Assembly: GCA_964578185.1 (NCBI GenBank)
Contig: CAZOBL010000001.1
Location: forward strand, 721 to 64,720
DNA length: 64,000 bases
Direction: 5' to 3'
DNA from: an uncultured Thermoplasmatales archaeon
Lineage (GTDB): Archaea; Thermoplasmatota; E2; DHVEG-1
The position numbers were made by a program, and so were the translations under genes. The notes below the pieces were generated by a model that worked only from the letters and a program-made list of their open reading frames with translations, did not search any database and had not been told where the DNA came from. This document shows positions 31,467 to 64,000 of this stretch, one piece after another; the stretch's first letter is position 1, and each line of letters opens with the position of its first letter.

Positions 31467-31859
31467 TTATTTCAGATAGTAACGCTGGTTTTTTAAATCT
31501 TTTTGTATTTTATCCTCACGCGCAAGCCAACCTAAGGCTTGATATAATTCTTGTTCATTAATATCAGCTAATCTTTTCATCATCGAAAGATCAGCTTCTC
31601 CCCAAATGTCTAGTATCTTCCAGATTTTACCAGCATTGGAACCTATTTCTTCTGTTAAATTCGTTCTATCGAGCTGGTATTTATCCTCATTTTTATTGAT
31701 TTTATTTTCACGTGCAAGCCAACCAACGCTAACATGGAAATCATGTTCATTAATTGACGCGTTTTCAATTATCTTTTGTTTATCTAGAGCGCCTTTTTTG
31801 TTCAAAAGTTTCCATATTTGACCTGCATTCTTACCATATTTTGTTGTTATTTCTCCCAC
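31467..31859 (-). CDS. Small protein made of two tandem winged-helix-like repeats
   Basis: 130 aa. The internal duplication is visible directly: NAGQIWKLLN...VGWLARENKI and NAGKIWKILD...LGWLAREDKI. The corresponding DNA repeat cacg(c/t)gcaagccaacc occurs at ~31506 and ~31701. Confidence 0.5.
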   Translation of the reverse strand: MGEITTKYGKNAGQIWKLLNKKGALDKQKIIENASINEHDFHVSVGWLARENKINKNEDKYQLDRTNLTEEIGSNAGKIWKILDIWGEADLSMMKRLADINEQELYQALGWLAREDKIQKDLKNQRYYLK

Positions 31860-31989: not shown

Positions 31990-34900
31990 TTATTGAATCA
32001 CATAGTATTGAAACTCGTACAAATCTGGGCTTACAGTACTCCATAGGCCTCGTTTTACTTCAAATCTTATTTCAGTTTTGTAAACATTATCAATACCCAT
32101 AGGATCATGAATATACCATTCACCTGTATCAAAAGCCGTTGTGGTTGCGCTGTGAGTTGTATCACCATATACAATATAGTTAATTCTTCTGCAATGTGAG
32201 TTATCATGCCAAGCAAGAAAACGTATCTTTGAAATATCAACAGGGTTGTTGAAGTGTAATTCAATATATGGTGTCCATACCCAATCCCATTTAGGGTAAT
32301 CAGAACCTATTGTACAACCTGCACGAGTGCTAGTATCTCCATCATATGCATTGGTTTCGCTGTTCCATGCGTCATCTGGATCTATGTGATAATCAGCTAA
32401 AGTCCATTGGCCTGTACCACTCCCTACAGTAATTGTGTGAGTAGTTATATCGCTAGTTTTGGATCTTAAATCTGCTACCTGACATCGAACGTTATAATCA
32501 CCTTCTGAGTAATATGTGTGTTCCACTATTTTCCAGCCAGCGTAAAAATGCCAATCTGTCCAACCATTGCCTTCTCCCCAATCCCATCTTATGTAGCTTA
32601 CTATTCCACCAGGATCTGGATCATAGCTATCTGTCGCATCAAATGTTACTGTTTCACCAGCTTCAGGTGTATTTGGAGTCCATGTAAATACAGCTACTGG
32701 CGCCTGGTTTCCTGGTAGACATGCAGGGTATACATTAAACCAGTCGTCTTGTGGTATGTTTTCTGAGAAATCTATGTTAAAATCTACTCCAAATGATACG
32801 TCTCCATCTATTTGCCAATCTCCTGGTGCCAGTCCACCTAATACAGGCTCCCAGTTAATGGTATAGTGATCAAAGTCTATCCAGCTATTTACTGATATAT
32901 CGGCACCATATAAATTATCAAATGAAAACAAAACCGAGAGTTCACCAGTTAGATATGATGAATCTATTGATACTGCTCCATCATACATTCTTGGAAAATC
33001 AACAATGTTGACTTTTAGATAACCAGGGTCTATATCTAAATCTACTACTAAACCAAATAATCCTTTTTGAGTTGAAATATAGGTATCTAAACCGTTTTCC
33101 GTGGAATAATTTGATGATTTATATGTTGTACCATCATAGGTGCTCTCAGTAGTGGTAAGTGTTAAATCTCCTTGTATGTAGAATCCTTGATAAAATGATT
33201 CATCCCCTACTTCTATTAACCCATCAGAGTTTGTTATACTAAAACCTGATTGGCTTTCCAAATATATCGTATCTGTGCTGCCGGTATCTTCCAGTGAAAA
33301 ATCTCCGTTTATACTCAGATATTTTGTATTTATTTTTGCAAATGTATCTACTAAATCTTTGTATACAAATGAGTCAAATGTTATGCTACCATCAAAGTCT
33401 ATTATATAAAAATCTTCATGTTCGTACATTACATTAAAAGTTGTTTGAGATACTTGCATATTTTTAACTTTTACTTTATCAATATATTTTCTTGTGATAC
33501 TTAGATCTGTTATATGAGTTAAAGTGTTAATCTGAGCATTTACAAGTACATCCCAGCTTGAAGGATCATCCCCCCATTGGGTGTAAAAAGAACCATCAAA
33601 GGATGTAGCTGTACTTCTAATTAGATATTGAGTTGAGGCATATATTGTAAGATTAATGTTGTGCGAGCCAGTACCACCTATATACACAGATTTAGGGTTT
33701 GTATCATATGTTATTTCACCGTCAAGTGATAAATCTGATTCAAAAGAAAATACATCTTCGACATTGATTTCTCCGTCAAATGAAAAATCAGTACATAGCC
33801 CCTGAAAATAATTTATATTTCCTTCATAATCATAGTTCCAATCAAGACTTAGTGCACCTTGTAAGGCAAAATATGCATTGGTATAAAATTCAAATTCATT
33901 GAAAAAGGAAAAATCTACATCTGCGTTAACTTGAAAATCAGTTTGACTTGGTATGGATATACCTACTAAATTGTTGTTGTAATCCCAGTTTATTTCATCA
34001 AAATAGAGCAATCCTTCAAATTCTGCTGTACCACCAAATTGCATGAGCTCATCATAATTTACATAAACTGTAATTGGATTTAAAGAGAAGGTAAATCCGT
34101 TTACACTAGTTAATTTAAGGCTTTCAGGGCGGTTTTGCGACATTTGACCAGTCCATTCAAACTCTATATCTCCTTCTAAGCTGACATATGAACCTGATCC
34201 TTCAAATGTAAAGATTAAATTTGACTCTGGGAGTTTTATTTTACCGTAATAAAAAGTTGCGATAAGGTTTGTGTTATAGGTCCCTATGAAAATATAGTTA
34301 GTTGAGGAATCTGTTTCAAATATAATTTCACCAGCAGTTAAGTCTATATCAATAAACTCTACTTCAATTAGATCATTTACATTAACTTTAATGGAACCTG
34401 TTAGATGTGTGCTACTATCCCCAATTATTTTAAATTTAATATAATCTTCAAGATCTGTTAGAACGTAAAATGTACCTGAAGTGGATAATACAAGATTACA
34501 GTCGAGTATAATTTTTGATATTTGAGCACCTGTGGTATTGATGTATACGTTATCTGCTTGGAAAGCATCAATTCTTGCTCCAATTTCAATAGTGCTGCCA
34601 AGTTTAGCATATCCAAGACCTGTAAAAATCATCTCACTTGCTGAGATTACAATATCGCCATTGTTTACATTTATATTAAAATCAGTTAAAGTTAATGTAC
34701 CATAAACTGCTATTTGTATCTCATAATAGCTAAAGTCAGTATTTGCGTATAGGCTTACACCACCACTAAGTACATCTTCAGTGTCAATAGTACCATTAAT
34801 GTGGAGGTTATAACCTGTAATTTTAAAGTGGCAGTTTTTAAAATATACAGACCAAAGTAGAGCATCAAGCTCTATTGTATTTGAAATTGTTAAAACTCCG

Positions 34901-37900
34901 CTTCCACGAATTACAAATCTTTCACCTTCAAATATTGTATATCCATCGTATACATCTATATCAAAATTTTTAAATTCAATTTGACCGACACCATCTAATT
35001 CAAATTCAATATTGTTCAAGCCTATATCTGATCTAAGATGTATTTCTCCATCAAATGAAAAATCAATATCTCCATCTATTACCATATCCTTTGATGGAAA
35101 TACAAAAACGCAGTTGGCTAGATATATTTCAGAGAAGTTTGCATCCATGACTATTTCATCTGTCATCTTTAAAAAAGCGGGTTCATTGAAAACCATACGT
35201 AGAATATCGCCATACATCTTGGCTTTACCGCGTGCAATTTCTATATCAAAATCTGTAAAGCTTATTTCCCCTGAGCCATCCATTTCTAATTCTAATATGT
35301 TAAAATCTCTATCTGCTTTTATATACATTCTACCAATAAATGAAAAGCTGATATCTCCATCGATATTCAAACTGTTTCTTGGTGTGTTAAACTTGCATTC
35401 CTCTGCATAAAGCTCAGTTATAGATGAATCAATTATTATTTCATCTGACATTTCAAAAAATGCTGGTCCTGAAAATATAAATTGCAAAATTTTTCCATTA
35501 ATATTTGTCCCAGAGTTTGTTAGATTTATCTCAAAATCAGATAGTGTGACTTCTCCCGCCCCGTTCATCTGAAATGTGATTATGTTTTGCTCCTGGTCAG
35601 TTTCAATGTATAAAGGGCCTGTAAATGAACAGGTTATATCAGCATTTAGCCGAATGTCGCTGTTTGTCTCTGGGATGTTTATGTGACCGCCATCTATGTT
35701 AAAAGAGTTAATATCTGCATCAATTACTATTATGTCCCCTATTTTAAATGATCCTTCACCATCAAGATAAAGCAATTCAGCGGAAAAAACTGTTCCTTCT
35801 GCAATATCACCATTTGTGTCTTTTACAATTATTTCAAAATCAGTCATTTCAATTGTTGAATCGCCATCTGTTAAATTTATTTCAATATAATCCTGCAGAT
35901 CTGTTAAAATATTTAAATTTCCATTTAATGTAAAATCAAGATTTCCATTAAGTAAAACCTGTGACTCATCTGACTCTTTTATAACATCAAAATACAAGTT
36001 TTCAGTATAAATTGAGTTTATTACTGCATCAATTTCAATATTAGTTACATCATAGTAATCAGGATCAAAAGATATTCCGCCGTTAATATATTCAGTATCA
36101 ATTGATAGTGTATCTGCTGAAACTGAGATTTCCTCTGATATATCCAATACCAGATTATTTATTGTTACATCGGCATCACTTTCAATTGTTATTTCCCCGG
36201 TATCTCTATCCCACCATATGTCAACTATACAATTATCACCAATAAAAGTTCCACCAATTGTTACCTCATAGCCATCTACTATAAATGTATCCTGTGGTAG
36301 GGTAAGTTGTTGGTCAACTGTTATTTGTATATGACCGGGTTGAACTATTATTTCACTTTGCCCCCCGCCAATCATTTTATGCCATAAATCTCGATATAAA
36401 AGCCAGAAGTTACCTTGACCTGCAAGTTTAAGATATCCCTCTATACTAACATTGTTTGGGTTGAAAGGACGTTCATATATAATTAAATCTCCTAGATGGA
36501 TAAAAAACGAGTCTGCTTGCACGTCTACATCATTGAAGCGGATACCTAAATCATTTTCAAATTCAGGTAAATGTAAATCAAGTTCATTGCTATAGTAATT
36601 TATCAATTCCTTTGTAACAATTGCAAATACATTTACTGGTACTGTTTCATTTGTGGTATTTAGATGAATATAATCTTTTGTTTCTGTAACTATATCTTCA
36701 TTATAGGGATCTACCTTTACTGATGCTAAAAGATCAAAGTTGAAAACATCAAATGGTTGATCAAATTCTAAATATACAAATATCGATTTTTCTGGTAGGA
36801 TAATATCTATATCTGTAAAATTTTCAAGAATTTTACTGAGAGGTTGAGTAAAATTAGGGTTTCCAATCTCTACAGCTAAATTGTCAACAGCAGATCCATC
36901 AGTTATGTTAACTGCGACTACTCTAAAAAGACGGCTGAAAAGGTTAAATGTACCCTCTACTAGTTCTGCATCATAAAGTTTTACATAAAAAGGATAATCC
37001 GGCAGTATATCTAGTGGAAACATGAAAGTAAAATTTTCAAAAGTAACACTTGTATCAGCTTGATTATCAAAGTTTAAACATAAAAACAAAGGCATACCAC
37101 TACCCATAATACCCAAGCATATTTGAACAGAGGATTCACCGGTAATGGAGAAGTTTTGTATATGAAATCTACCATAGATATAAAAATTTTCGATATCTAA
37201 ATTCTTTATTAAAAGACTACCCGAGGTTGCATCTATATCTATTGTTAAATTGTTCCAATAAATGGGAACAGTATAATCGTCCTCATTTGTAAATTTAGTA
37301 AAATCATGTGGATAAAAACAAACTTTTCCAATGGTTTCAAGTTCAAGTGTTATCTCCCCAAAAATTGTCCCATTTCCACTTTCGTTTATATTTTTTAAAT
37401 CATCTATATGAAGGTAGACATCTGTATCTGTTAAATTAAATCTAAAATTCGGCAGAGTAAGCTCTGCGTTTACACCAGCATGGCCGGTGATATATCCCGA
37501 TACATTTGTCATGTAAAAAAAGGTTGAATTCTCAACACGTCTTTTATAAATAAATATATCTAGGTCGTCAACCCCAATATCAATATCTCCTTCTGACTCG
37601 ATATTAAAAATTGTTACATCTTCATCTTGCCATTCAAGCTCCAAGCTTACAGTTGTCTGATCGCCTGTTATATAGAGGTTTTCAATATGTGTGTCTAATT
37701 GAAAATCAACTTCTTCATCATTAAAAGTGGTATTTTGAAGTTTAATAGATATATCTGTGTTAAAACCCATATATGATTGATCAATTTCAATATCCATTAG
37801 CAGATATCCGGATTCTTTTGATGCGTCTTCAAGTAAAAAACTTCCTTTAACATAGGATATGCTAATATCTGCTGTATCCTTAAAATAAAATTGGAAATCT

Positions 37901-39966
37901 TCAAGCTCTGCTATACCGCTGCCATCCATAGTATAAACTTTGCGATCATCGACGCTCACCCAGGATATGTTAAATACCTCGTTTTGTGTTTGAAATGTTA
38001 GTATACCCTCAGTCATACCTATTAAAACGCCGTTGTCATCCCAATAATATGAGCTGAAGCTAAAACTTGCACTGCTGCCCGGTTTGATAAGTACATAACC
38101 CCAGTCATCATAGATATGCCATTCAACTTGTACCTCTAGAGTGAAACTAAAAGATTGATTATAATATCCAGATATATCTAAGAGTTGCTCTTCATGAAAA
38201 ACTAAATCATTATACTGAAGTTTAAAACCATGGATTTTAACTCCATTGGTAACTTCAAAATATGAATTTCCATTTATTACATCCCCCGTGTTTTCAACAC
38301 TTAAAGCTGCAGTAATATTGCCCTGTTTTGTCTTCTGCAGATGATCTATTTGTAATGCAAATGTGCCATCTAAAAAAGGTGAATACACATTAAAATCTAA
38401 ATCATCAATGCTAAGCTCACTGCCCGATAGTGTTATACATGTCTGACCACTGCTTATATCTGCAAAATTAAAAATAACTGGTGAAGTAAAACTATTAGTT
38501 ATATTAAAACTACCCTGAACGTTGTTTACAAATTCCCCCAATGTTTCATCAACAATTGATGCGAAAAAATTTACAGATAAATCTTTATTGGATCTGCTTA
38601 AGATAAACTCACTTTTAGATAAATCAAGGCTGATATCACATTCAAACGGCGATTGAGAAGATATATCTGTATAAAACGACCCTATACCCGGTCGTATTAA
38701 ATCTGCATTAAAGGCAGTGTTTTCATCATCACAATAAATGGTTAAAAAGGTTTTACCCTCATCAAAATCACCTTGCCATTGCACCCCCGCAGAACCATCA
38801 ACATCAGAGAAATGAAAGTCATAAAGTGGATTTGCTAAATTATCTGTAACACCTACTTTTTTGATTTTATTACCATGTGTATTAATTTCTATATAACCAG
38901 TTGAGCCAGCGTCAATAGTAAGTGTTACTTTTTTTGGAAAATCTTCAATATATACATAGTTTCTCTTACTTGTTTCTCGATGTTCAACGATAACATCAAC
39001 TTTACTGTTTGTCTGCTGGGAACGTTCAATATAGACAATACCGCCAGGCTCTCGCATGAATAATATTTCAGTTTTGGCAGCAGGATTATTGTGTACTAGG
39101 ATTTTATCTTCTGAAACAAAAGAATTACTATTCATATCTTTGTAAGATAATATAGTAGTTAATTTTTCAGATCCAATGGTTTCATCATCTGGAATGATTT
39201 GTATTCTATGCTCCGGTTTTTTCAAAAACGTTAAAAAATGTGGGACTAACTTATAAACAACATCACAACTCCCTGGTATTTTCTCGTTTTGAGGTGATTG
39301 AAAACCAAAATATATTTTATCACCAGCGTTTTTAGGGCTTAACAAACCAGATCTTTGAAATTCGATAAAAGACTCGAAAAACGCGTTTTCATCCAGATTT
39401 TCAAAACCAACTAATCGATCTATTTCTAGTTTAAGATTAAAAGAAAAAGATAGGGGTCTTACAAATCCTAGAAAGAGTTGAAAATTAGCTTTTATATCAT
39501 CTTTTCCATCATTGTTAATATCTATGTATGCAGGTTTAAAAAGACCTATTGATGATGTTTTCTCAACTTCTTCGTATTTTATATATAAAAATGTGGAAAA
39601 TAGGGAATTTTTTAGATTTGTAAACGTTTTTAAAAAAACATTATCACTGCTTGATTTAATGTTTAATTTTGATTTTATATTTTCAACTAGATTTTCAAAA
39701 TTAGAGGAAAAACTTTTAATTTTTCCTGTAGGTTGATTATTATAGTTTTTTAAATCATGTTGATTATATTCTAAGTTTTTCTTTGTTTCATCATTTAAGC
39801 GTTTAATTCTGTTTTCATTGTTTTCATTTGGTATTTGCTCTTTAAGATTTAAAGCAGATATGGATTGTGTAAAAACTGTAGATAACAAAACTAGAGTTAT
39901 TATAATACAAAATATTTTCTTGTTAAAAATTGATTTAGCTGCTTTTATTAAAGCAGTGTTATACAC
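31990..39966 (-). CDS. Giant secreted surface protein D (2658 aa): shared N-terminal module, long beta-solenoid-like repeat region, C-terminal PKD domain plus discoidin-like jelly-roll domain
   Basis: Single uninterrupted ORF with an N-terminal hydrophobic signal/anchor (IFCIIITLVLLSTVF). The N-terminal ~560 aa are paralogous to the 41747 and 59977 gene products (IDINNDGKDDI..., EWHIYDDWGYVLIKPGSSASFSF). There are ~95-aa tandem repeats (~34950..36000 region). A PKD-like segment VAVFTWTPNTPEAGETVTFDATDSYDPD is present. The C-terminus reads AYDGDTST...LYEFQYYVIQ. Confidence 0.8.
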   Translation of the reverse strand: MYNTALIKAAKSIFNKKIFCIIITLVLLSTVFTQSISALNLKEQIPNENNENRIKRLNDETKKNLEYNQHDLKNYNNQPTGKIKSFSSNFENLVENIKSKLNIKSSSDNVFLKTFTNLKNSLFSTFLYIKYEEVEKTSSIGLFKPAYIDINNDGKDDIKANFQLFLGFVRPLSFSFNLKLEIDRLVGFENLDENAFFESFIEFQRSGLLSPKNAGDKIYFGFQSPQNEKIPGSCDVVYKLVPHFLTFLKKPEHRIQIIPDDETIGSEKLTTILSYKDMNSNSFVSEDKILVHNNPAAKTEILFMREPGGIVYIERSQQTNSKVDVIVEHRETSKRNYVYIEDFPKKVTLTIDAGSTGYIEINTHGNKIKKVGVTDNLANPLYDFHFSDVDGSAGVQWQGDFDEGKTFLTIYCDDENTAFNADLIRPGIGSFYTDISSQSPFECDISLDLSKSEFILSRSNKDLSVNFFASIVDETLGEFVNNVQGSFNITNSFTSPVIFNFADISSGQTCITLSGSELSIDDLDFNVYSPFLDGTFALQIDHLQKTKQGNITAALSVENTGDVINGNSYFEVTNGVKIHGFKLQYNDLVFHEEQLLDISGYYNQSFSFTLEVQVEWHIYDDWGYVLIKPGSSASFSFSSYYWDDNGVLIGMTEGILTFQTQNEVFNISWVSVDDRKVYTMDGSGIAELEDFQFYFKDTADISISYVKGSFLLEDASKESGYLLMDIEIDQSYMGFNTDISIKLQNTTFNDEEVDFQLDTHIENLYITGDQTTVSLELEWQDEDVTIFNIESEGDIDIGVDDLDIFIYKRRVENSTFFYMTNVSGYITGHAGVNAELTLPNFRFNLTDTDVYLHIDDLKNINESGNGTIFGEITLELETIGKVCFYPHDFTKFTNEDDYTVPIYWNNLTIDIDATSGSLLIKNLDIENFYIYGRFHIQNFSITGESSVQICLGIMGSGMPLFLCLNFDNQADTSVTFENFTFMFPLDILPDYPFYVKLYDAELVEGTFNLFSRLFRVVAVNITDGSAVDNLAVEIGNPNFTQPLSKILENFTDIDIILPEKSIFVYLEFDQPFDVFNFDLLASVKVDPYNEDIVTETKDYIHLNTTNETVPVNVFAIVTKELINYYSNELDLHLPEFENDLGIRFNDVDVQADSFFIHLGDLIIYERPFNPNNVSIEGYLKLAGQGNFWLLYRDLWHKMIGGGQSEIIVQPGHIQITVDQQLTLPQDTFIVDGYEVTIGGTFIGDNCIVDIWWDRDTGEITIESDADVTINNLVLDISEEISVSADTLSIDTEYINGGISFDPDYYDVTNIEIDAVINSIYTENLYFDVIKESDESQVLLNGNLDFTLNGNLNILTDLQDYIEINLTDGDSTIEMTDFEIIVKDTNGDIAEGTVFSAELLYLDGEGSFKIGDIIVIDADINSFNIDGGHINIPETNSDIRLNADITCSFTGPLYIETDQEQNIITFQMNGAGEVTLSDFEINLTNSGTNINGKILQFIFSGPAFFEMSDEIIIDSSITELYAEECKFNTPRNSLNIDGDISFSFIGRMYIKADRDFNILELEMDGSGEISFTDFDIEIARGKAKMYGDILRMVFNEPAFLKMTDEIVMDANFSEIYLANCVFVFPSKDMVIDGDIDFSFDGEIHLRSDIGLNNIEFELDGVGQIEFKNFDIDVYDGYTIFEGERFVIRGSGVLTISNTIELDALLWSVYFKNCHFKITGYNLHINGTIDTEDVLSGGVSLYANTDFSYYEIQIAVYGTLTLTDFNINVNNGDIVISASEMIFTGLGYAKLGSTIEIGARIDAFQADNVYINTTGAQISKIILDCNLVLSTSGTFYVLTDLEDYIKFKIIGDSSTHLTGSIKVNVNDLIEVEFIDIDLTAGEIIFETDSSTNYIFIGTYNTNLIATFYYGKIKLPESNLIFTFEGSGSYVSLEGDIEFEWTGQMSQNRPESLKLTSVNGFTFSLNPITVYVNYDELMQFGGTAEFEGLLYFDEINWDYNNNLVGISIPSQTDFQVNADVDFSFFNEFEFYTNAYFALQGALSLDWNYDYEGNINYFQGLCTDFSFDGEINVEDVFSFESDLSLDGEITYDTNPKSVYIGGTGSHNINLTIYASTQYLIRSTATSFDGSFYTQWGDDPSSWDVLVNAQINTLTHITDLSITRKYIDKVKVKNMQVSQTTFNVMYEHEDFYIIDFDGSITFDSFVYKDLVDTFAKINTKYLSINGDFSLEDTGSTDTIYLESQSGFSITNSDGLIEVGDESFYQGFYIQGDLTLTTTESTYDGTTYKSSNYSTENGLDTYISTQKGLFGLVVDLDIDPGYLKVNIVDFPRMYDGAVSIDSSYLTGELSVLFSFDNLYGADISVNSWIDFDHYTINWEPVLGGLAPGDWQIDGDVSFGVDFNIDFSENIPQDDWFNVYPACLPGNQAPVAVFTWTPNTPEAGETVTFDATDSYDPDPGGIVSYIRWDWGEGNGWTDWHFYAGWKIVEHTYYSEGDYNVRCQVADLRSKTSDITTHTITVGSGTGQWTLADYHIDPDDAWNSETNAYDGDTSTRAGCTIGSDYPKWDWVWTPYIELHFNNPVDISKIRFLAWHDNSHCRRINYIVYGDTTHSATTTAFDTGEWYIHDPMGIDNVYKTEIRFEVKRGLWSTVSPDLYEFQYYVIQ

Positions 39967-40196
39967 AATATTTTACCCCCATATAATTTTACAAATCCTC
40001 TCTACTACCCCATTATCAAGGATTTGTTTTATATAATAATAGTAATATAGTAATTAAGTGTTTTATTGTATATTAAATTATTGATTAACTGTGCATTTTT
40101 GACCTATAAGTACAACAAAGAAATAAAAACAGAATTTGGTTTTGAGATTATCAATTATTTTTTTAAAAAGCTATAAAAAAAGAAGTGGTTTATTTT

Positions 40197-41591: not shown

Positions 41592-41746
41592 ATACTCATC
41601 ACCAATTTTTTTACAAATACAATTTTTATTTTTTTTATTATATTAGTCTTGTTGTACATGTTTTATTTATTTTGCTAAGATGCCCAGGATTTGTTTTATT
41701 GATTATACGAATCTGGAATTATAAAATTTCAGAGATTAACTTTTTT

Positions 41747-50311: not shown

Positions 50312-50517
50312 TGAAAATATAGTTAATATCTTGTAGGTTTTTTTCGAAAAATTGCTATTTTTATAGCCTTTACTAAGAATTTTATTCGTATTGATTACCT
50401 CCCAAACAAGTATTATTTTAACAGATTTATAATATTATATAAATCTTTGTTATTTTTAGTATATATACTTTATTATATAAAAGTTGTCGAAATGAAATAA
50501 TAGGGCATGTAGAATTA

Positions 50518-56500: not shown

Positions 56501-59500
56501 TCAAGAGTGCCTACACCAACAGATACTGATCCTGAAAAAATATTTATCCCTGCACTTATAGTAGTAGATGCAAAGTCGCATTCAAATTGAGCGTTTAAAA
56601 TGGTTGTATCAGCATCTATATATAACTCATTCAACCATATTGTTCCACCTAGCAGAACTTCACCAGATGTTAAATCAATACCTCCTCCGCCTATGATCTG
56701 TATGTAATCAATCTCTACAAGGATTTCATTTATAAATGGTATTATATCTTCTCCTTCAGAGTCTCTAAGATACAGATAGAAATCTCCAATTATAAATTCT
56801 CCATTTCCTGCAGCATTAACATTAAATGAGTTGTAACTACCTGTTTTTATATTTACTTGTAGATCTCCTGAAAGCTGGAAATCCCCCTCAAGGTTTACAA
56901 ATAGAGAGCTTCCACTGCTTCCTCCGCTGCCACCGGAGCCTCCACCACCGGAACCGCCTCCAGACCCGCCGTCATCTGAGTTGCTACCCGGTAATGCTAT
57001 TGAAAAGTCTTGCACATCAGCAGAAAGTGTAATTGAAAAACTTGGGATACCAAAAGAAATATCGGTGTACATATAGCCTGCACTCCATGCAGGTGGTGTA
57101 TTTATTGAACTATAATAAAACAAAAACCCTGTTAATACAATAGTAACTGTTCCAGAACCGTCAACTGTGAGTTCTCCATCAAATACTTTAATATTTGCTG
57201 AGCCGCCTGCTGATATATCAAGTGAATCCCATGAAAGACTTACATGTTTATTTGCAGCATTGTCATCATACATGAATACTACATCTGAGAGTATTACTGA
57301 TCCTTCGATTGATATGTCTACTTCGAAGTCTTCAAGGCTTGTAAAATCTAATTCAAAACCATTATCAGCGTTTGATAAATCAAAGCTGCCGTTAACCATG
57401 AAATATAAGTCGCTAGTAGGTGATATACTACATTCAGTAAGCACTAGGCTGTCGACACTTGCGCTAACTTTTAGCTCTTCACCAAATGATATCCATAATT
57501 CGTTTTCAGCAATTAGGGTCAAATGTGAGATTCCAACCGTGAACTGTCCATTGTTTACATCAAGATAAAAGTCAGATAGATCAATACTAGTCATACCATT
57601 TGCAAATGATATATTTATATAGTCTTGACCAAATATTATTGTAGTATTTCTTCCTGATGTTATCTCAAGACAACCGTTTAGTAAAATTTGTGTACCCTGG
57701 AAATTTATTAAAAGATTTTCTAGTGTGATTGATCTAAATGCATCTGATATATCGATGTATCCATCTCCTATTTCTATATGACTATCTGATGTGAAATTGA
57801 TTTTATCTGCAGATATACTAATTGTATTTTCGATATCAAATATTAAATCGTCTATATTTATCTGTCTTTGAGAGTCTCTTGTCATATTTCCTGATACATA
57901 TACATATGGTGTATCTCCGGTTAGATCCCATTCTATATTTGCTTCTCCTGTAATTTCTTTGTATTTACCAGAGTAGAATGTACCCTGTATAGTTGCATTT
58001 TGGAAATTATTTAGATTTATTTGACCGTTTATTTCTCCAACTTTTAAGTTTCCACATAGAATTATATTTCCTTGTTCTCCTTGATGATTTAATATTAATG
58101 CACCAGGTCCATCGATTGAAAAATGATTGAAATCAAAAATTATTATATTATTTGGGGTAGTATTTGGATCTTCTATTTTTAGATAAAAGTCTACGAGGCT
58201 GAATTCTTGTGTTCCATCATGAGTGAAGCTTGTAGCGTTTATCTTTAGATAACCAGTGGTTAAATTCCACCATATATGAAGTGATTCTGTGCCGGTTTGT
58301 AAATATATAGTGCCTATTAATGTGACAAGTACTCCATCAATATCCAAAGTGGTATTGATTACAATATATCCGTTTCCACCTATAGCAATATGACCGGATT
58401 CAGGCACTATTGTTGCATCTCCTGAGCTTTCTGTTGGTGTTTTTGATACTGAATCGGATTTTAATCCTTCATTGTCACTTGTATCTACTGCAGATATCTG
58501 ATAAGTGTAGCTTACATCATTTGTTAAACCTGTATCAAGATATTCGGTGATATCTACTTCATCTATTGGATTGCCATCTCTATAAATTATATAATGGTCT
58601 ACTCCTACGTTATCTGTTGCAGCATTCCAACTTAGATATAGTTGCCCATCATGGGCATCCTCAACATTTAGGCCTGTTACCTTTGTTGGAGGTTGAGTAT
58701 CTTCTGGTTCCTCCTCAGTTGGAGTGCCACTTACAATAGACGAATTCTCACCAACATTCCCCGCTGCATCAACAGCACAAACCTGATAATCATAACTATC
58801 ACCATCAACCAAACCGGTATCCAAATACTCAGTAGCAGATACATCAACAACAAAAATACCATCACGATAAACACGATAATGATCTACACCAACATTATCA
58901 GATGCAGCATCCCAGGTCAAACTAAGCTTACCATCATGAAAATCTTCAACAGACAAACCAATAACTTGAGAGGGTGGTTGAGTATCCCCGCCAGGACTTT
59001 CAGTGGGTGTACCACTTTCTTCTAATGATTTTTGACCTTCATTGTCTGAGGTGTCAACTGCTGAAACTTGGTAAGTATAACTAACATCATTTGTTAATCC
59101 GGAATCTTGATAATTTAACCCAGATACATCAATAATAAACGAACCATTACGATATATTTTGTAATAGTCAACTCCCACGTTATCTGTGGCTGCATCCCAT
59201 GAAAGATCTAGTTTTCCGTCACGGGCATCTACAACAGAGAGACCAGTAACCTGAGTGGGAGGGATATTATCAACTACTGTTTCTGTTGGAGTGCCACTTA
59301 CAATAGACGAATTCTCACCAACATTCCCCGCTGCATCAACAGCACAAACCTGATAATCATAACTATCACCATCAACCAAACCGGTATCCAAATACTCAGT
59401 AGCAGATACATCAACAACAAAAATACCATCACGATAAACACGATAATGATCTACACCAACATTATCAGATGCAGCATCCCAGGTCAAACTAAGCTTACCA

Positions 59501-59955
59501 TCATGAAAATCTTCAACAGACAAACCAATAACTTGGGTGGGAGGTAATATATCTTCAGTTGGTTCATCTGAATCATGTGAGTCATTAAGCCAGTTTAGTA
59601 GATTTTGGAAAAACGTAAGATTTGCAAGCCGTGGAAATCTATCAAGCAACTTAATTAAAAGGTTGTATAAACTTAGTTTCAGCTTTGAAAGTATTGATTC
59701 GTCATTACTTGTTGTAATTTGTTTAGAGTTTTCAGATTCATCATTTGCCTCTTCATTTTTATCCTCCTCTGATGTATCTTCAGAAAAATCAACGTTTATA
59801 TTGTTTGATTCCTCAGAGTTAAATGGTATAGCTGAAGTGATAACACTTGAGCTAGCTGATATTAATAAGACCACTATAAGTATACTAGATAATTTATTAA
59901 TATTATTATATAATAGTGATTTTGCTGCGGGTTTTCTTTTAAATAATTTTCTCAT
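50518..59955 (-). CDS. Giant secreted surface protein B (3145 aa): signal/anchor, acidic low-complexity segment, 4x fibronectin-III repeats, beta-solenoid region with ~95-aa repeats and a Gly/Ser hinge, PKD domains, C-terminal right-handed parallel beta-helix
   Basis: Single ORF with a GGAGG RBS 10 nt upstream. Four FN3-like ~90-aa repeats are present (PPTQV.GLSVED..DGKLSLTWDAA.DNVGVDHY.VYRDG...). The hinge reads SDDGGSGGGSGGGGSGGSGGSSGSS (DNA ~56925-56995). PKD-like domains are present (EWDFNGETDDG...; GGETNSDTDI). The C-terminus carries a pectate-lyase/NosD-like repeat series (NIQDAIDS...VVLDGNYNEDIVIDKS; NSNDNEINSCIFTQN; SSNNLLTMS). Confidence 0.8.
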   Translation of the reverse strand: MRKLFKRKPAAKSLLYNNINKLSSILIVVLLISASSSVITSAIPFNSEESNNINVDFSEDTSEEDKNEEANDESENSKQITTSNDESILSKLKLSLYNLLIKLLDRFPRLANLTFFQNLLNWLNDSHDSDEPTEDILPPTQVIGLSVEDFHDGKLSLTWDAASDNVGVDHYRVYRDGIFVVDVSATEYLDTGLVDGDSYDYQVCAVDAAGNVGENSSIVSGTPTETVVDNIPPTQVTGLSVVDARDGKLDLSWDAATDNVGVDYYKIYRNGSFIIDVSGLNYQDSGLTNDVSYTYQVSAVDTSDNEGQKSLEESGTPTESPGGDTQPPSQVIGLSVEDFHDGKLSLTWDAASDNVGVDHYRVYRDGIFVVDVSATEYLDTGLVDGDSYDYQVCAVDAAGNVGENSSIVSGTPTEEEPEDTQPPTKVTGLNVEDAHDGQLYLSWNAATDNVGVDHYIIYRDGNPIDEVDITEYLDTGLTNDVSYTYQISAVDTSDNEGLKSDSVSKTPTESSGDATIVPESGHIAIGGNGYIVINTTLDIDGVLVTLIGTIYLQTGTESLHIWWNLTTGYLKINATSFTHDGTQEFSLVDFYLKIEDPNTTPNNIIIFDFNHFSIDGPGALILNHQGEQGNIILCGNLKVGEINGQINLNNFQNATIQGTFYSGKYKEITGEANIEWDLTGDTPYVYVSGNMTRDSQRQINIDDLIFDIENTISISADKINFTSDSHIEIGDGYIDISDAFRSITLENLLINFQGTQILLNGCLEITSGRNTTIIFGQDYINISFANGMTSIDLSDFYLDVNNGQFTVGISHLTLIAENELWISFGEELKVSASVDSLVLTECSISPTSDLYFMVNGSFDLSNADNGFELDFTSLEDFEVDISIEGSVILSDVVFMYDDNAANKHVSLSWDSLDISAGGSANIKVFDGELTVDGSGTVTIVLTGFLFYYSSINTPPAWSAGYMYTDISFGIPSFSITLSADVQDFSIALPGSNSDDGGSGGGSGGGGSGGSGGSSGSSLFVNLEGDFQLSGDLQVNIKTGSYNSFNVNAAGNGEFIIGDFYLYLRDSEGEDIIPFINEILVEIDYIQIIGGGGIDLTSGEVLLGGTIWLNELYIDADTTILNAQFECDFASTTISAGINIFSGSVSVGVGTLELSEFSFTSDGFYLGADLISLNGPVVITLGATISVSAGGSYLEIENLLADIPGAIHVELDGIFNLDGSSLDIQTDMQFQNIDIVFSGDASIDSFDLYLEAPAAQVSLDWDSITATGSGNLEIQGKKVTVDASFDMIDIIGLDASFDATLMGISLTGSISANAELSLDISPDWKIRINGTGTISSLNFEAAGFGKVTCSFIELYGDLKIDFAAKQLNIVDIDVDAIDLTMELGGSEIFKDVTAAIEGDLLMTWDGTLENINSVYLEGDFSLSLGSSIPIKIGVLEIEGSIGLDGEVYLESLKPGWSIDATGFQLSGKISLISSDFKLVSLSGVITIDGYGAFKKLSDRIEISLTGFSVTANLEIYIACFKTFSSEGSITGSGDITVGLSSNGYIETSSGFTISGSGISIGSLYIQTSLVLSAGSYIGWSNLQGDTKTFTFEDFNAELDIDINNVRLEVGSITATEYTVITLSQSESYMKVNGGFNFDVFRVSQNGETLFEALSLTISDVKIKNYKNNPSRTGIQFEKINDKTPAISIPDGSFTLFGKTYDYIDLEGHLRGSVTVYLESSGGINVFHVDGSSDASVSINVGTSNYHISVDVGFSTGGGQLNAEADLNSNIRYIENTVSGFNYYSIEGVLNGCGLKLQNGATSGTFRIEWEQGLKNISVVNGLELVPSFVYFTKSSVESWIQLWPIGTGEMQAFIEGPQWANAGEEVCFHGAAIGGDGDYTFEWDFNGETDDGFQKDDEGRNVCHTYPKNEGTCIHHQVILKVTDSSGNEVTADHHINITSLKAHPGSGVGVVGVCEDLVLSGYSEEGCYENNPSAQTKYTWALYPMNDNGKEFNKEFTETEQQTIPGGLVRPGEYIAEFTVSIFIGDELKEQDSERLDGFITISGATIDAEETNVNIGETVNFIVNTYGSCNSFTIDYGDGTSGGVTHEYDDPGVYTATINYGCESEFNSIVITVHSFSVDAGGPYDNNSQAYKVGDEIQFHGSIKDYDGEGIPSISWDFGDGETCNNCGLNPVHIYESTPPSDEDGYKVTLTVTIGGETNSDTDIVFVEEIDYEPPSILSVAAGGPGNSCGEARPNERINVYVHAARSTYEPSHYWYKLAGWNDWRSIKPSDTNVWDSKPIHISNPEPGKVTGSYILFVKIEDSEGYESNSWPVNLRWTRLDTNILGPKCAFDICSLPFRATGSDPPCFDFEDLAHSWTFGDGGGASGQYVSHKYADDGVYFVKLTSAGWGDIYDTAYQSIRVLNVPPYSNFSVNPLVKAVDEQISFDGNAHDLDGEVIGWKYDFDDGRRTYGYSDYNYDYRKSGFYTPTFTTTDDDGDKDINKRDTVTGVRYIIVADAIVDNDFSNDGNTPKFGERRFNNIQDAIDSPNVPNEDGLIVVLDGNYNEDIVIDKSIDMISVSEGYSTTHEKITFGGATIDGTADPTSPTTIKITAPNVTIQHLNIIGDEISVETDNDHTTIKDCSISSNIIGVKADTSSNNTIQNCEISDTQNAVILMSNSNDNEINSCIFTQNFKTRYGEAISILNSNANTIKACEIDNHNIGVTIDNSTANRVTHCIINDNNKAMLVKNVEKKDPGSGPEKRSAITSHDSNVITYTNFSYNTYGVHLLNTAYTIIGAENAIFYFNLEGNYEPGITLPISESATTPGYTMKPTPSGDTPQGSPRPKNSYFNNNNYPIFVQNSELNAIKDCIINAPLSDYTSFNIKGPSSTTGVTIQNSEDIMIYRTIVKRAKDYGIHIFNSNNVTIWKSLIWENPVGVLFDHSSNNLLTMSSLINHTICGIYVSEGSYSNLIRYNNIFKFSRQFYIDMINNAQTEVAGWIDWLNNDTRITAYDAGVKTMWDDDGEYYEKTHIWGTANDKKGAGNYWSDYNWQYYITNLLNNGTVVDPNDLPSVEMPEWIMINMTTGETIMPEPEGPQRYDWLEIGDVPYNISGPEGQKNQSQDRYPVFPYPFIWCKEWLNTDVPTQPDILPPEPIPRIYLRPVEL
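58718..58968. repeat. 251-bp perfect direct repeat, copy 1 (inside FN3 repeat 3 of giant B)
   Basis: Read from the sequence: gttggagtgccacttacaatagacgaattctcaccaac...caaaccaataacttg is identical to 59285..59535 at an offset of 567 bp. Confidence 0.85.
59285..59535. repeat. 251-bp perfect direct repeat, copy 2 (inside FN3 repeat 1 of giant B)
   Basis: Identical to 58718..58968. The flanking bases differ (ct|gttgg versus ca|gttgg; cttg|g versus cttg|a). Confidence 0.85.
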
Positions 59956-59976
59956 AATTTTTATGCCTCCAAAAAA
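59956..59976 (-). promoter_or_regulatory. Short intercistronic spacer carrying a GGAGG RBS between giant A and giant B, implying co-transcription
   Basis: On the minus strand the sequence reads ttaatttttt GGAGG cataaaaatt ATG (the giant B start). The giant A stop lies immediately upstream. Confidence 0.55.
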
Positions 59977-62900
59977 TTAAGTTAACTCCAATATAATCCA
60001 AAATTCACCATAGATGTCAAGAGTTCCAGTCGCCCAATATCTACCAGAGTATTCTCCATAGTATACCCATAGTTCTCCGTTAGCTTCTATGTGCAAATGT
60101 GAAGTATTACAATAGACACTAAAACCTTCGTTTATTTTAACTTCAAAAAGTAGAAAACCATCTATTTGAATGCCTACGCCGCTAAGTTCAACCTTGAAGT
60201 CACCAGTGTTAATATCAAAATTTATGTTATCAGCATAAATAATTGTACTAGTTTCTATGTAGAGTTTAGTATTATTAAAAGACAGGTTTACTTTTCTATC
60301 AAAATATATTTCATCTGCGCTTAAGAAGAAATTGTTAACTTGAAAGTATATATTTGTAAAACTGACAGTTATGTCTTTATTTACAAATAAGTCACTATCA
60401 ATAGATATGTCTTTGTCTTCACCGTTGAAATCCCAGTCTATAAACAATGTACCATTTGCATTGTTTGTGACATCGATATCTATTTTTCCTGCCAAAGTAA
60501 AATCAGTTGTATTGTAGTCAAAATCTAGTTCTATGTCGATATTTGTAAATGTATCATCTATTGCCATGTTGAAACAGCCGCTTCTGCCCTCATACCAGTT
60601 GAAGCCACCAGTAATTACACGGCTTACATTTATACTGATATTTTCTCCAAAAGAAAATCTAAATCCTTGTATTGTAAACTCAGCACTGCCCTCAATGGTA
60701 AATGTTTGTAAAAAGTTTCCTTCTGTAAAGTTGATATATACATATGAGTCGTTTGTATCAAAAATAAAATGACCATCTAGCATTCCTGCTACTCCGTTTA
60801 TGGTAAACTGGAAATTGTTTACATGTATCTCATTTGAACCACCAATTGCAATTGATACGTTTCCATTTTCATCTTCTGAAACGGTAACATCTCCATCTCC
60901 TGATCCTTGACCTCTTGTTTTAACATTAATAGTAATTGTATGGGTTTCTGTTGGATCATCAACGTTCATAACAGTGATATTCCCACCCAAATCAATTCCA
61001 TTTTCATTTGGAGCTTGTATGGTAAAATGAACTATCTGAGCACCCATATTTGGGATATTTCCACTCATAGGTGAAATTGTCCAACTACCATTTTCAGGTT
61101 GAGGATAGTCAACAATACTCCAGTTAACAGGCTTATTTATATTTACCCAATTGAAAATCCAAAAAGAAGCAGTCATGTTCCCACCAGGTTTAATATCTGG
61201 GAATGAAAAACCGTTAATTGGCCAAATCGCTAAAGCATCAAATTTATTGTCAATTGCAAATTTTTTAGTAGTGGCTGCATCTTTTACGCCATATTTGTAA
61301 AACTCAGAATAGGCAGAGTTATTTACTCGAACAGTGAAACTATCTTCAACGCCTTGGCCAGTGATAGTTATCGTAACATTAATTCTGATTGTTTTATTTG
61401 GACCTAAAATTCCACTAGTTTCATCTAAATATACAGAGGTTCCGTCCGGTATTTCATTAATATCTTTTATTTGCCAATGAAGTGTATAATCTTCTTTGGC
61501 ATCATTTCCAATTGTAAACCATGTATTTATAATGGTTTCATCTTTTGAGTCATTGTAAAGAAAGTTTCTTGGACCATGATCTACAATAGTTACATAAGCA
61601 CCAGGAATAATCATAAGTCCAATTGAATCGTTAACAGGATCAATTAATGTATTCGATGTGGTGACTGTGACAATAGGAGTGTAATTTCCAATATTAAATA
61701 CATGAGGTTCTACAGATATCCATGTTTTATCAGTTGTCTTTTCAAAATACGTACCATCATCAAATGAAATATTATACGTGTAAGGAGCAATATCCTCATT
61801 CCCATTTAGACTGAATGGGGGTGCATACCATACTTCAAAACCAAGTTCAACATATCCACTAGATGTTTGAATATATTCACCTTTTTCACCTATAACAATA
61901 TCAGGACCTTGGAAACCTTTGCTTCTAAAAATTAAAACTTGGCCAGATGTATTGAACGGGAAAATTGGAATCCAATCTGTTGAATTACCTTTAATCTGAA
62001 TAACTCCAGAAGCTTCGCCTGTTACATTGATATATAAATCAGAAATTGTTACATTCCCATTACCATCATTTTTAATATTAATACTGAAATCTACTTTAGT
62101 ACTTAATTCACCTGCAAGTCTAATAACATCATATACAACAACTGCTGCACTTACTTCTTTTGCATCTACAATACCAGACATTGTACCATCATCTGAATTT
62201 TGTAGATAAACCCATAAATCCAAAGTACCCATTGCAGATATCAAAGTTTTATCTTCCGTTTCTGACTTTAAATCAATCCAACTAGAACTATGGCCAAACA
62301 GATAAAGATAGAGATTTTCTTTCTCCCCACTGAAGAAATCTGGGATGGCATCTTCCTCACCCATATTGGTTTGCAACGTCAAATCCAATAAACCAGGTTC
62401 TAAAACAATGGATATTCCAGCATCTTCAAAAGTAAAGGTAGTATTCTCATTGATTTCTCCTCTTAAATATACCCATTTAAAGCTACTAATATCTAAAAAG
62501 CCTGATAAATGTGCGTTACCTGTTATTGTAACATTTGTTGCAACAATACCAAATAGGTTTAAATAACCTATATGAAAAGTTTTATCTCTTATAATTATTA
62601 CAGGCATACCAGATAATTTATTTATTCCTAAGGTTATGTTTCCCTTCCCAGGATCTGAAACAAAATCGATTACATAAATCTGCAGATTCAAATAACCAAT
62701 GTAGATTAAATCTGCATTTGTGGCTTCGGTTGTAGAAAAAGTTGCGGTAAATGGTACCTCTTTTGAAGTATCTACATTGACCCAAACGGTTGTTTTACCT
62801 GTTATATATAAAGATTCAATATTGGCTTCTATCCACATACCTGGTACTAAAGCCCATAGAGAATTGATTACAATATCAGAATCATCATAGATAGCTGCAT

Positions 62901-64000
62901 CAACCTTAAAAGTACCATTCTCGAAAGACAATGAAATAATACCGCCGCCAGTGAAAGTTACATCTAGATCCATGGAGACGGCTCCAGGCCCCTCCCAGTC
63001 CGGAATAAATATATAATTAACATTCAAAGTGACATCATCAATTACTATATCTGTTAAACCTATCTCAGAATGTAAAGACAAATTACCATTTATACTAGTA
63101 ACATTAAAATTAAGGTTGCCAGATATGAACAAATTTCCTATCGATACGCAGACTAGTGTTTTGTATTTAAACTCGAAATCTGTAAGATCTATGCTACCTG
63201 TTGCATCGGCACCGAAATCTCCATTTATTGATTTGATACCTGATTCATTCCAAGCAATATCAAGGTTTCCTGATGCAGCTGCATCTAGTACAACATCAAG
63301 GGAGCCTTTTAGTGTTATATCAAATAAGTCTGTAAGGTTGATTTTATCTATTGTCACGTTACATGTTACAACTGAATCGTCTAAAATCAGGCTAAGGGTT
63401 CCATCTTTATTGTTTGTATTTAAGTCAAATGCTACAGATATCTCTGGGATGGATATGTCTACTTTGTCTTTTACCCAGAAATTGAAATCTTTAAGACTTG
63501 CAAGTACACTACCATCAAGAGATATACTAAGATTTCCATCTATAGTCTCCCATGATACATTAAAATCTCTATCAAGTGACTTAAACCTTATTTCACCAGA
63601 AATAGTGGCTATTACACCTTCTTCTTGGTTACTATAGGTAGAGTAGAAACCAAAACTTGCATAGCTATCTGGATGTATTAGTACGTAACCTGAATTATTA
63701 AATATGTGCCATTCAACACTAATGTTAAAAACAAACGGCCAGTTTTTTTCAACTGTATTTAAACTTACTATACTATCTTTATGAACAACTACGCCGTTGT
63801 TGTATTTAATTGTTAAATTTGAAATATCTATTCCCTTCTCTGCTTTAAATCCAACATATCCTGAGATGTTTCCATCTACTTCATCAACTGACACGTTTAA
63901 ACTGATATTACCTTGTTTTTCTTTTATGAGATGATCTGCAGAAACAGATAGCTCTCCGCTGATTACTGGTGAGCTAATTGAAAATTCTAAATCTTGTATG
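59977..64000 (-). CDS. Giant surface protein A, 3'-proximal >1340 aa of a longer gene whose 5' end lies beyond the window; paralogue of the N-terminal/middle part of giant C
   Basis: The frame stays open to the window edge, so 63894 is not the start. It is collinear with giant C: VEWHIFNNSGYVLIHPDSYASFGF matches LEWHVYDDWGYVLIHAGSLAMFSF, and TRGQGSGDGDVTVSEDENGNVSIAIGG matches TKGGSGGGGQEGVDVTSDGENVSIRIGG. It ends without the PKD/discoidin C-terminus, 21 nt before giant B. Confidence 0.75.
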   Translation of the reverse strand, partial: IQDLEFSISSPVISGELSVSADHLIKEKQGNISLNVSVDEVDGNISGYVGFKAEKGIDISNLTIKYNNGVVVHKDSIVSLNTVEKNWPFVFNISVEWHIFNNSGYVLIHPDSYASFGFYSTYSNQEEGVIATISGEIRFKSLDRDFNVSWETIDGNLSISLDGSVLASLKDFNFWVKDKVDISIPEISVAFDLNTNNKDGTLSLILDDSVVTCNVTIDKINLTDLFDITLKGSLDVVLDAAASGNLDIAWNESGIKSINGDFGADATGSIDLTDFEFKYKTLVCVSIGNLFISGNLNFNVTSINGNLSLHSEIGLTDIVIDDVTLNVNYIFIPDWEGPGAVSMDLDVTFTGGGIISLSFENGTFKVDAAIYDDSDIVINSLWALVPGMWIEANIESLYITGKTTVWVNVDTSKEVPFTATFSTTEATNADLIYIGYLNLQIYVIDFVSDPGKGNITLGINKLSGMPVIIIRDKTFHIGYLNLFGIVATNVTITGNAHLSGFLDISSFKWVYLRGEINENTTFTFEDAGISIVLEPGLLDLTLQTNMGEEDAIPDFFSGEKENLYLYLFGHSSSWIDLKSETEDKTLISAMGTLDLWVYLQNSDDGTMSGIVDAKEVSAAVVVYDVIRLAGELSTKVDFSINIKNDGNGNVTISDLYINVTGEASGVIQIKGNSTDWIPIFPFNTSGQVLIFRSKGFQGPDIVIGEKGEYIQTSSGYVELGFEVWYAPPFSLNGNEDIAPYTYNISFDDGTYFEKTTDKTWISVEPHVFNIGNYTPIVTVTTSNTLIDPVNDSIGLMIIPGAYVTIVDHGPRNFLYNDSKDETIINTWFTIGNDAKEDYTLHWQIKDINEIPDGTSVYLDETSGILGPNKTIRINVTITITGQGVEDSFTVRVNNSAYSEFYKYGVKDAATTKKFAIDNKFDALAIWPINGFSFPDIKPGGNMTASFWIFNWVNINKPVNWSIVDYPQPENGSWTISPMSGNIPNMGAQIVHFTIQAPNENGIDLGGNITVMNVDDPTETHTITINVKTRGQGSGDGDVTVSEDENGNVSIAIGGSNEIHVNNFQFTINGVAGMLDGHFIFDTNDSYVYINFTEGNFLQTFTIEGSAEFTIQGFRFSFGENISINVSRVITGGFNWYEGRSGCFNMAIDDTFTNIDIELDFDYNTTDFTLAGKIDIDVTNNANGTLFIDWDFNGEDKDISIDSDLFVNKDITVSFTNIYFQVNNFFLSADEIYFDRKVNLSFNNTKLYIETSTIIYADNINFDINTGDFKVELSGVGIQIDGFLLFEVKINEGFSVYCNTSHLHIEANGELWVYYGEYSGRYWATGTLDIYGEFWIILELT

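Follow-up and report, generated by a model that had tools for sequence, protein, structure and literature searches.

Giant modular secreted proteins in an archaeon related to Thermoprofundales: a candidate variable surface-attachment system

Giant modular adhesin-like proteins are already a known kind of protein, and two described groups come closest to the genes considered here. Bacterial fibrillar and RTX adhesins, such as LapA, MpIBP and SiiE, are very large secreted proteins with a constant end, a long rod of beta-rich or immunoglobulin-like (Ig-like) domains and a ligand-binding, often lectin-type, other end; they are acidic, associated with calcium, multi-copy and variable between strains. 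The adhesin-like proteins (ALPs) of gut methanogens are described as multi-copy and repetitive archaeal surface proteins combining right-handed beta-helix and Ig-like (Big) domains, with many repeats absent from domain databases (PMC11532034). Likenesses to both groups were found in a stretch of 64,000 nucleotides (nt) of contig CAZOBL010000001.1 (positions 721 to 64,720; assembly GCA_964578185.1) from an uncultured Thermoplasmatales archaeon, hereafter the window, which carries an array of four giant genes (G1 to G4) together with a gene for a smaller secreted protein with PKD and Hint domains (HintP).

With about an even chance of being right, we propose that the array encodes a variable cell-surface attachment system made of Sec-exported, acidic, fibrillar adhesin-like proteins with putative glycan-binding tips. 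New here are the N-terminal domain, the repeat, the Hint-terminated members and a lineage in which such proteins had not been described: the Thermoprofundales genome paper makes no mention of adhesins or surface proteins (PMC6461988), and literature searches returned nothing relevant on proteins of this type.

The array and its modules

An open reading frame (ORF) scan of the half of the window at 31990-64000 gave five consecutive, co-oriented minus-strand genes, four giants and HintP, separated by 21-230 nt (Table 1), which is the arrangement described in an earlier note made from the letters of this DNA. G1 and G2 are identical to proteins called on the source contig (G1 = P0001), compared from residue 2 on. 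G4 was called by the scan at 59977-63894, its frame being open as far as base 63999; these 1340 residues without a stop, in agreement with the more than 1305 first noted, correspond to residues 412-1751 of the 1751-residue protein P0003 on that same NCBI contig of 69,956 bp. An assembly chimera had been named as a possible source of error, and no interruption was found in any giant; three independent assemblies contain the homologue P0010 in identical form. Judging from stop-codon frequency, uninterrupted frames of 8-9.4 kb in DNA of 32% GC cannot be due to chance.

A Sec-type signal peptide was recognised at the N-terminus of G1, G3 and HintP, and in 11 of 11 family relatives read; in G1 the only hydrophobic stretch spans residues 13-39. 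The complete giants G1-G3 carry a net charge of -267 to -295, with aspartate and glutamate at about 15% against about 5% for lysine and arginine. Their cysteine content is very low. A regular-expression search for the RTX nonapeptide GGxGxDxUx gave zero matches in the five array proteins, by which an RTX adhesin was ruled out.

The N-terminal module (N-module) of the giants, modelled with AlphaFold from an alignment of 18 sequences, is all-beta, with a predicted local distance difference test (pLDDT) score of 84.9 and a predicted template modelling score of 0.80. Its strongest conserved motif is a D-x-N-x-D-G-x-x-D loop (residues 149-157 of G1), invariant or nearly so, of a type typical of calcium-binding loops. 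The N-module profile matched no PDB sequence, and neither this module nor the repeat of about 95 residues that follows it matched a curated family in Pfam and NCBIfam scans. The N-module is a new beta domain of about 520 residues without a structural relative, and the repeat is likewise new. G3 gives no match to the N-module hidden Markov model (HMM).

Copies of the repeat were traced with an HMM iterated from one G1 unit and run on the five array proteins. Each giant contains 7-12 copies, so that the repeat, first noted in two giants, is real and present in all four; these are also the only matching proteins among all ORFs of the window, and the repeat occurs in 22 large family relatives as well. 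The repeat profile yielded a sub-threshold sequence match to 'putative adhesin' structures (E 0.008-0.4), for which Pfam gave no support. In a model of the G2 tail (residues 1801-2854) the repeats form long beta strands with pLDDT of about 70-90, two Ig-like domains have moderate pLDDT, and the last 135 residues or so reach 78-96. The repeat had been taken for a solenoid, a description to be dropped: similarity to a parallel beta-helix or beta-solenoid was not found in the structural comparison.

At the distal end, the C-terminal domain of G2 is predicted to be a beta-sandwich jelly-roll superposable on solved CBM32/discoidin members; that of G1 is homologous to it, the fold having been modelled on the G2 copy. 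PKD domains exceed the Pfam gathering score (PF18911/PF00801) in G1 (31.8 bits vs 27), G3 (124.7 vs 27) and HintP (47.2 vs 23.5), and among PDB sequences the G1 domain matches PKD domains from an endoglucanase and from collagenase ColH. No Pfam match above threshold, PKD included, was obtained for G2 and G4. G3 alone among the giants ends in Beta_helix (PF13229, 72 bits vs 25.9) and NosD (PF05048, 42.1 vs 23.6) matches, for which no PDB sequence relative was found; NCBIfam scans of the array proteins added nothing relevant.

Part of what the earlier note had read from the letters stands after these comparisons. The giants are secreted, beta-rich, module-built proteins of surface type; the N-module and the repeat match no curated family in Pfam, NCBIfam and PDB profile searches; the discoidin-like C-terminus is right at the level of fold, although sequence methods miss it; and the beta-helix is indeed the C-terminal tip of G3. 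The FN3 array, placed with it at that tip, proved to be N-terminal (residues 141-511) and to stand where the N-module would be. The ending of PKD plus discoidin-like domain, assigned to two giants, holds for G1, whereas the 2854-residue G2 lacks a Pfam PKD and has an Ig-like tandem at fold level instead.

In HintP, the Hint domain starts with a cysteine and contains TPNH, which lines up with the T-x-x-H motif of seven relatives. Its C-terminal HN is degenerate, the end region (…FLIANTEPGIISTNN) aligning poorly with relatives, and its Intein_splicing score (23.5 bits) is below the cutoff of 35.8. Of the seven aligned relative domains, six terminate in VHN and have G, D, E or K as the next residue, hence no +1 nucleophile, the bacterial-intein-like (BIL) pattern associated with cleavage rather than splicing. 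The HintP Hint domain shows 32-39% identity to those carried by giants in two related loci (L002 and L087). The first 125 residues or so of HintP (signal peptide and PKD) share 29-31% identity with the small PKD proteins of two others (L003 and L093), with respect to which HintP carries an additional Hint and a C-terminal Ig-like domain. Given this homology, the pair of a giant followed by a small PKD protein recurs in L003, L093 and here; the Hint protein, first described as embedded, does lie within the array, but it is not merely embedded, being homologous to the PKD proteins and Hint ends of relatives. No toxin family was detected by Pfam scans in any array protein or after any family Hint domain, and no small immunity-like gene is among the ORFs of the array.

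Pairwise blastp of the four giants, the all-against-all comparison first suggested, confirmed their paralogy. G1 and G2 share 34% identity across roughly the first 800 residues and 28% across the final 254; G2 and G4 are 39% identical across 1364 residues, with G4 matching G2 residues 478-1776; G3 is 20-24% identical to the others, in the central repeat region only. G4 runs collinear with G2 as far as about residue 1776 of the latter and then breaks off within the repeats, lacking any tip domain. The N-modules of G1, G2 and G4 are mutually 36-39% identical, about as distant from one another as from members in other genomes, and the longest and best DNA match between paralogues is 73% over 120 nt. 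On both grounds, the paralogues are old, and nothing points to recent recombination tracts. Recent gene conversion between paralogues was ruled out by the same DNA match, and G4 and G3 as split halves of one gene by the separate signal peptide of G3 and by the alignment of its repeats to that part of G2 to which the end of G4 also aligns. Within G3, the FN3 array (58430-59545) consists of four tandem units of 285 nt, of which 58715-58978 and 59282-59545 share 98% DNA identity, whereas the other two have 61-65% identity to the reference. These values indicate a 570-nt tandem duplication of a two-unit block, which would be the array's only recent event.

A GGAGG-like ribosome-binding site precedes the start codons of G1, G3 and HintP. 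The TAA stop of G4 is followed by 21 nt (59956-59976) containing GGAGG and then by the ATG of G3, a spacing which suggests co-transcription and translational coupling of G3 with the tip-less G4. The frame of G2 is open upstream of its annotated GTG at 50311 (region 50312-50434, minus strand), and there an in-frame ACG (50395-50397) occupies the expected place of a start codon, 7 nt downstream of a GGGAGGT ribosome-binding site. Read from this ACG, G2 has a complete signal peptide (…NKILSKGYKNSNFSKKTYKILTIFSVLILICSVFVTSASS); read from the GTG, a truncated one. The ACG could stem from a change of ATG, from use of a non-canonical start or from an error in the consensus. A 14-mer, ATAAAACAAATCCT (minus strand), occurs exactly twice in the window, at 40019-40032 and 41686-41699, that is 53-66 nt ahead of the start of G1 and 95-108 nt ahead of that of HintP; when at most two mismatches are allowed it has 9 matches against 3.1 expected, and it may be a regulatory site common to both genes. 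Two antisense ORFs of 182 and 202 residues, over G2 (49788-50336, plus strand) and G4 (63029-63637, plus strand), are most likely spurious.

Table 1. Features of the window and of related loci (positions are those of the window unless a locus is named; aa, amino acids; CTD, C-terminal domain).
Feature	Position	Strand	Description	Evidence
G1	31990-39966	(-)	2658-aa giant; signal peptide, linker, N-module, ~95-aa repeats, PKD, CBM32-like CTD	ORF
G1 N-module	38092-39645	(-)	aa 108-625, all-beta; DxNxDGxxD loop at aa 149-157	
G1 stalk	34315-38004	(-)	9 detected ~95-aa beta repeats, aa 655-1884	Iterated HMM and alignment
G1 PKD	32425-32709	(-)	aa 2420-2514	Pfam PKD_4, E 1.5e-7
G1 CTD	31993-32397	(-)	aa 2524-2658	CTD profile match, E 3e-51, and alignment
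HintP	40197-41591	(-)	464-aa PKD-Hint secreted protein	ORF and Pfam
HintP PKD	41268-41495	(-)		Pfam PKD, E 2e-12
HintP Hint	40797-41195	(-)		Pfam PT-HINT (PF07591), E 4.7e-9, 37.1 bits vs cutoff 27.7
HintP C-terminal Ig-like domain	40230-40487	(-)	After acidic linker	
G2	41747-50311	(-)	2854-aa giant; N-module, repeats, Ig-like regions, CBM32-like CTD	ORF
G2 N-module	48566-50119	(-)		
G2 repeats	47789-48790 and 43655-45775	(-)		
G2 mid Ig-like region	45872-46771	(-)		
G2 Ig-like tandem	42212-42814	(-)		Fold level
G2 CBM32-like CTD	41750-42175	(-)		Modelled fold
G3	50518-59955	(-)	3145-aa giant without N-module; signal anchor, FN3, repeats, PKD array, beta-helix	ORF
G3 four FN3 units	58423-59535	(-)	aa 141-511	Pfam fn3
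G3 repeats	55492-58296	(-)		Iterated HMM
G3 PKD array	about 52276-54258	(-)	Four matched stretches	Pfam PKD; PKD_4, E 1.5e-36
G3 right-handed beta-helix C-terminus	50521-52173	(-)		Pfam Beta_helix, E 5.5e-20; NosD
G4	59977-64000	(-)	C-terminal 1340 aa of 1751-aa giant, running off the window	ORF and blastp
G4 N-module end	63682-63999	(-)		
G4 mid Ig-like region	60982-61869	(-)	Repeats also present	
C25 (gingipain-type) peptidase fused to NosD-type beta-helix	2580-5684	(+)	1034 aa	
Large protein	13678-17247	(-)	1189 aa	Weak CarboxypepD_reg and Ig-like matches
Array in the window			Four giants and HintP, upstream of DUF2582-GT4	
Giants in L087			Two giants, of which one has three Hints and the other a CBM32-like end; corresponding site upstream of GT4; no DUF2582 gene called	
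Giant loci in L003 and L093	L003 7562-20525; L093 4496-16574		One giant and a small PKD protein, between debranching enzyme and phosphorylase	
Small secreted PKD protein	L003 18234-18791; L093 14317-14853		178-185 aa, Q-rich helical tail, directly after giant	
Giants in L002, L092 and others			Adjoining giant C25 peptidases, or elsewhere	

The family across genomes and its host

Relatives were sought with the N-module profile in an exhaustive HMMER search of 1.84 billion cluster representatives (E up to 0.001), which returned 115 representatives, 77 of them below 1e-30. For the 20 of these 115 looked up, the clusters (90% identity) hold 1-2 members on 1-3 contigs. The family relatives rest on this search: word-index searches with the N-module or the repeat missed even the window's own proteins, the one with the C-terminal domain recovered six fragments, a metagenome scan gave four short loci only, and a scan of genome contigs with N-module patterns gave no match, the patterns being too specific and the 18 aligned N-modules too divergent for deriving search patterns. 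The family marked by the N-module is real, rare, very diverse and undescribed, with G1, G2 and G4 as members.

The position of the N-module is constant, from residues 70-130 or so to about 620 in proteins mostly of 2000-3600 residues, and all 11 relatives read run from signal peptide through a charged linker to the N-module. The other end varies. A CBM32-like domain ends about 12 representatives, and six representatives, together with a redundant copy of one of them, carry a Hint domain at the C-terminus or close to it, four of these proteins ending 0-4 residues past it; one family protein carries three Hint domains, Big_2 or CarboxypepD_reg-type domains are found in further representatives, and the sister N-modules of P0025 and P0036 are joined to a CBM32-like and a Hint end, respectively.

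All genomic contexts read are archaeal, the named ones being metagenome-assembled genomes (MAGs) of Thermoplasmatota. Gene order around a glycogen cluster is kept in relatives, whereas the giants differ in copy number and position, so that the array is not a syntenic, invariant one. With alternative C-termini on a constant N-module and this variation in number and place, module shuffling and a variable island are real on an evolutionary scale. The recombination-driven diversification first suggested therefore keeps its support for module swapping across the family, but not for recent exchange inside the array (73% over 120 nt). The glycogen cluster is flanked by a second insertion site, the junction of debranching enzyme and phosphorylase; in the window it is empty (24279-27749), and both genes overlap convergently. 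Directly downstream of G1 lies a gene for a DUF2582 tandem winged-helix protein of 130 residues (31467-31859, minus strand), which in L003 and L093 likewise heads the glycogen cluster. In L002 (1-9826) and L092 (736-9801), giant C25 proteins of 1657 to more than 3000 residues directly adjoin members of the giant family.

The GluRS of the host is 66-73% identical to those of Thermoplasmatales/Thermoplasmatota MAGs, including SG8-52-3 and M9B1D, both listed as Thermoprofundales (MBG-D) genomes. This lineage, one of the most widespread groups of uncultured sediment archaea, stands out by its extracellular peptidases, C25 among them (PMC6461988). Two complete relatives measure 1.82 and 2.32 Mb. 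The left half of the window encodes isopentenyl phosphate kinase-type, IDI2-type, GGPP synthase, GluRS, class Ib tRNA synthetase, adenylosuccinate lyase and folate-type genes together with the glycogen cluster. By GluRS placement, the genome sizes of relatives and these housekeeping genes, the host is a sediment heterotroph related to Thermoprofundales and not a DPANN archaeon. Neither a DPANN-type episymbiont with a small genome nor a methanogen, the comparisons drawn in the earlier note, fits this host, and GluRS placement rules out both host types. The 1189-residue protein at 13678-17247 matches neither the N-module nor the repeat or C-terminal domain profiles, and the window holds zero tRNA genes and zero Rfam elements.

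Proposed function and alternatives

Modules of the CBM32/discoidin and PKD/beta-helix types usually engage glycans. In the attachment system that we propose, the giants, whose signal peptides are observed, would be exported by the Sec route, and the constant N-module would dock or assemble each protein at the producer's envelope, a proximal position expected because a conserved end should meet a conserved partner and because no other anchor was found. On the models, the long acidic rod of repeats, 6-11 copies in this layout, with Ig-like inserts would project the distal end, where PKD/Ig and CBM32-like domains in G1 and G2, or PKD and beta-helix in G3, would, by their folds, bind glycans on polysaccharide-bearing detritus or other cells in sediment. 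Several paralogues would thereby present different tips, with binding specificity carried at the distal end, and G4 would be a tip-less copy probably co-transcribed with G3. From their conserved catalytic residues, the Hint modules may self-cleave or process partners, HintP being a small secreted partner able, in this scheme, to cut itself at the Hint N-terminus. A more specific scheme is speculative and probably wrong: Hint ends and HintP would perform Hedgehog-like autoprocessing, the thioester at the Hint cysteine being resolved by an envelope or target nucleophile, thereby fixing or releasing the C-terminus of the giant fibre, with the N-module as a novel type of envelope-docking domain, in a sortase-independent mounting and exchange of archaeal fibres.

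Surface location, an N-terminus-proximal orientation, glycan binding and the biological role are what we infer from these features, and several observations weigh against them. The features by which fibrillar adhesins are recognised include a secretion signal, a repetitive stalk and a distinct binding-type domain, all present here, and an anchor in the cell wall or membrane, which was not found: the array proteins have no second hydrophobic or C-terminal transmembrane segment, and Pfam and NCBIfam scans gave no sorting domain of known archaeal type. Lacking such an anchor, the giants could be released rather than cell-attached, and their orientation is tentative. The N-module has no recognisable function, G4 has no tip, and G2 has no canonical start codon where the full signal peptide would begin. 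For the CBM32-like domain the assignment holds at the level of fold alone, with no F5/8 type C Pfam match for G1 or G2 at E<0.01 and only chance matches in a PDB profile search, and 363 residues of the G2 tail model after the repeats are unreliable (pLDDT below 50).

None of the rival explanations fits as well as fibrillar adhesins do. It is unlikely that the giants form a structural sheath, coat or extracellular matrix and bind no outside targets. Such a role would suit highly acidic, repetitive beta proteins, G1 and G2 having neither anchor nor enzyme domain, and the conserved N-module could mediate self-assembly; coat proteins, however, are normally conserved, single-copy and abundant, whereas here 20 of 20 clusters have 1-2 members, copy number and position differ between related genomes, and the C-termini are swapped modules of binding type. 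Secreted polysaccharide processing, with the G3 beta-helix and possibly other parts as catalyst and the CBM32-like and Ig modules targeting the substrate, is a shade less credible: no glycoside hydrolase or polysaccharide lyase family was found in any giant (Pfam, NCBIfam), the G3 C-terminus is without a PDB relative at sequence level, and a non-catalytic stalk of more than 2000 residues is atypical of enzymes.

Polymorphic toxin systems are known to include PT-HINT, and the presence of this domain in HintP and in relatives, there at the C-terminus or close to it, together with gene arrays and a constant N-end with a variable C-end, recalls a conflict system with N-terminal delivery, variable C-terminal effectors and a pretoxin Hint for release. 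We consider this very improbable, since no toxin domain follows any Hint, four relatives ending within 0-4 residues of it, the HintP Hint precedes an Ig-like domain, no immunity-like small genes were seen, and the variable ends are lectin or Ig modules; the C-terminal toxin with adjacent immunity gene by which such a system is recognised was not found, and it was rejected. Giant adhesin-like proteins are common in episymbionts, and the DNA is AT-rich, yet a host-attachment apparatus of an episymbiotic, small-genome archaeon, the context imagined at first, is hardly tenable for a Thermoprofundales-type member of Thermoplasmatota, with genomes of 1.8-2.3 Mb and isoprenoid, purine, folate-type, tRNA-synthetase and glycogen genes in the window. 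Least probable of all is an assembly artefact or a set of decaying pseudogenes. The contig is MAG-derived, G4 is truncated relative to G2, G2 has no canonical start at the expected place and G3 contains a 98%-identical internal duplication, but the four frames of 4-9.4 kb are uninterrupted, similar full-length architectures occur in many independent assemblies, with identical copies in three, and the paralogues are far too divergent for mis-joined repeats.

If the attachment system exists as proposed, the family would give Thermoprofundales/MBG-D a concrete, variable apparatus for contact with organic particles or cells. Terminal Hint domains on giant surface proteins would be an unusual use of this module, and the conserved N-module would be a lineage marker for surface proteins, usable for antibodies, enrichment and identification in cryo-electron tomography.

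Comparison with known systems

With pretoxin-Hint, BIL and Hedgehog Hog domains, HintP and the family Hint domains share the N-terminal cysteine and the T-x-x-H motif. The relative domains that end in VHN without a +1 nucleophile resemble BIL domains, and the location of Hint at the extreme C-terminus in four relatives recalls Hedgehog precursors, in contrast with which no sterol-recognition region is evident and the C-terminal HN of HintP is degenerate. Unlike in polymorphic toxins, no toxin lies downstream of the family Hint domains. Compared with described CBM32/F5/8 type C domains, the one in the giants is too divergent for Pfam or PDB profile searches and is attached to a giant non-enzymatic protein, not to a glycosidase.

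The array giants differ from RTX adhesins in having a Sec signal peptide instead of RTX nonapeptides and a type I secretion signal, and from bacterial fibrillar adhesins in general in their archaeal host, in the lack of a known anchoring mechanism and in an N-module and repeat that match no known stalk or anchor domain. The ALPs of gut methanogens belong to another phylum and, as described (PMC11532034), possess a membrane-anchoring domain and archaeal Big-domain repeats; set against them, the present family has its own N-module, a 95-residue repeat and CBM32-like or Hint ends, and shares the beta-helix through G3 only.

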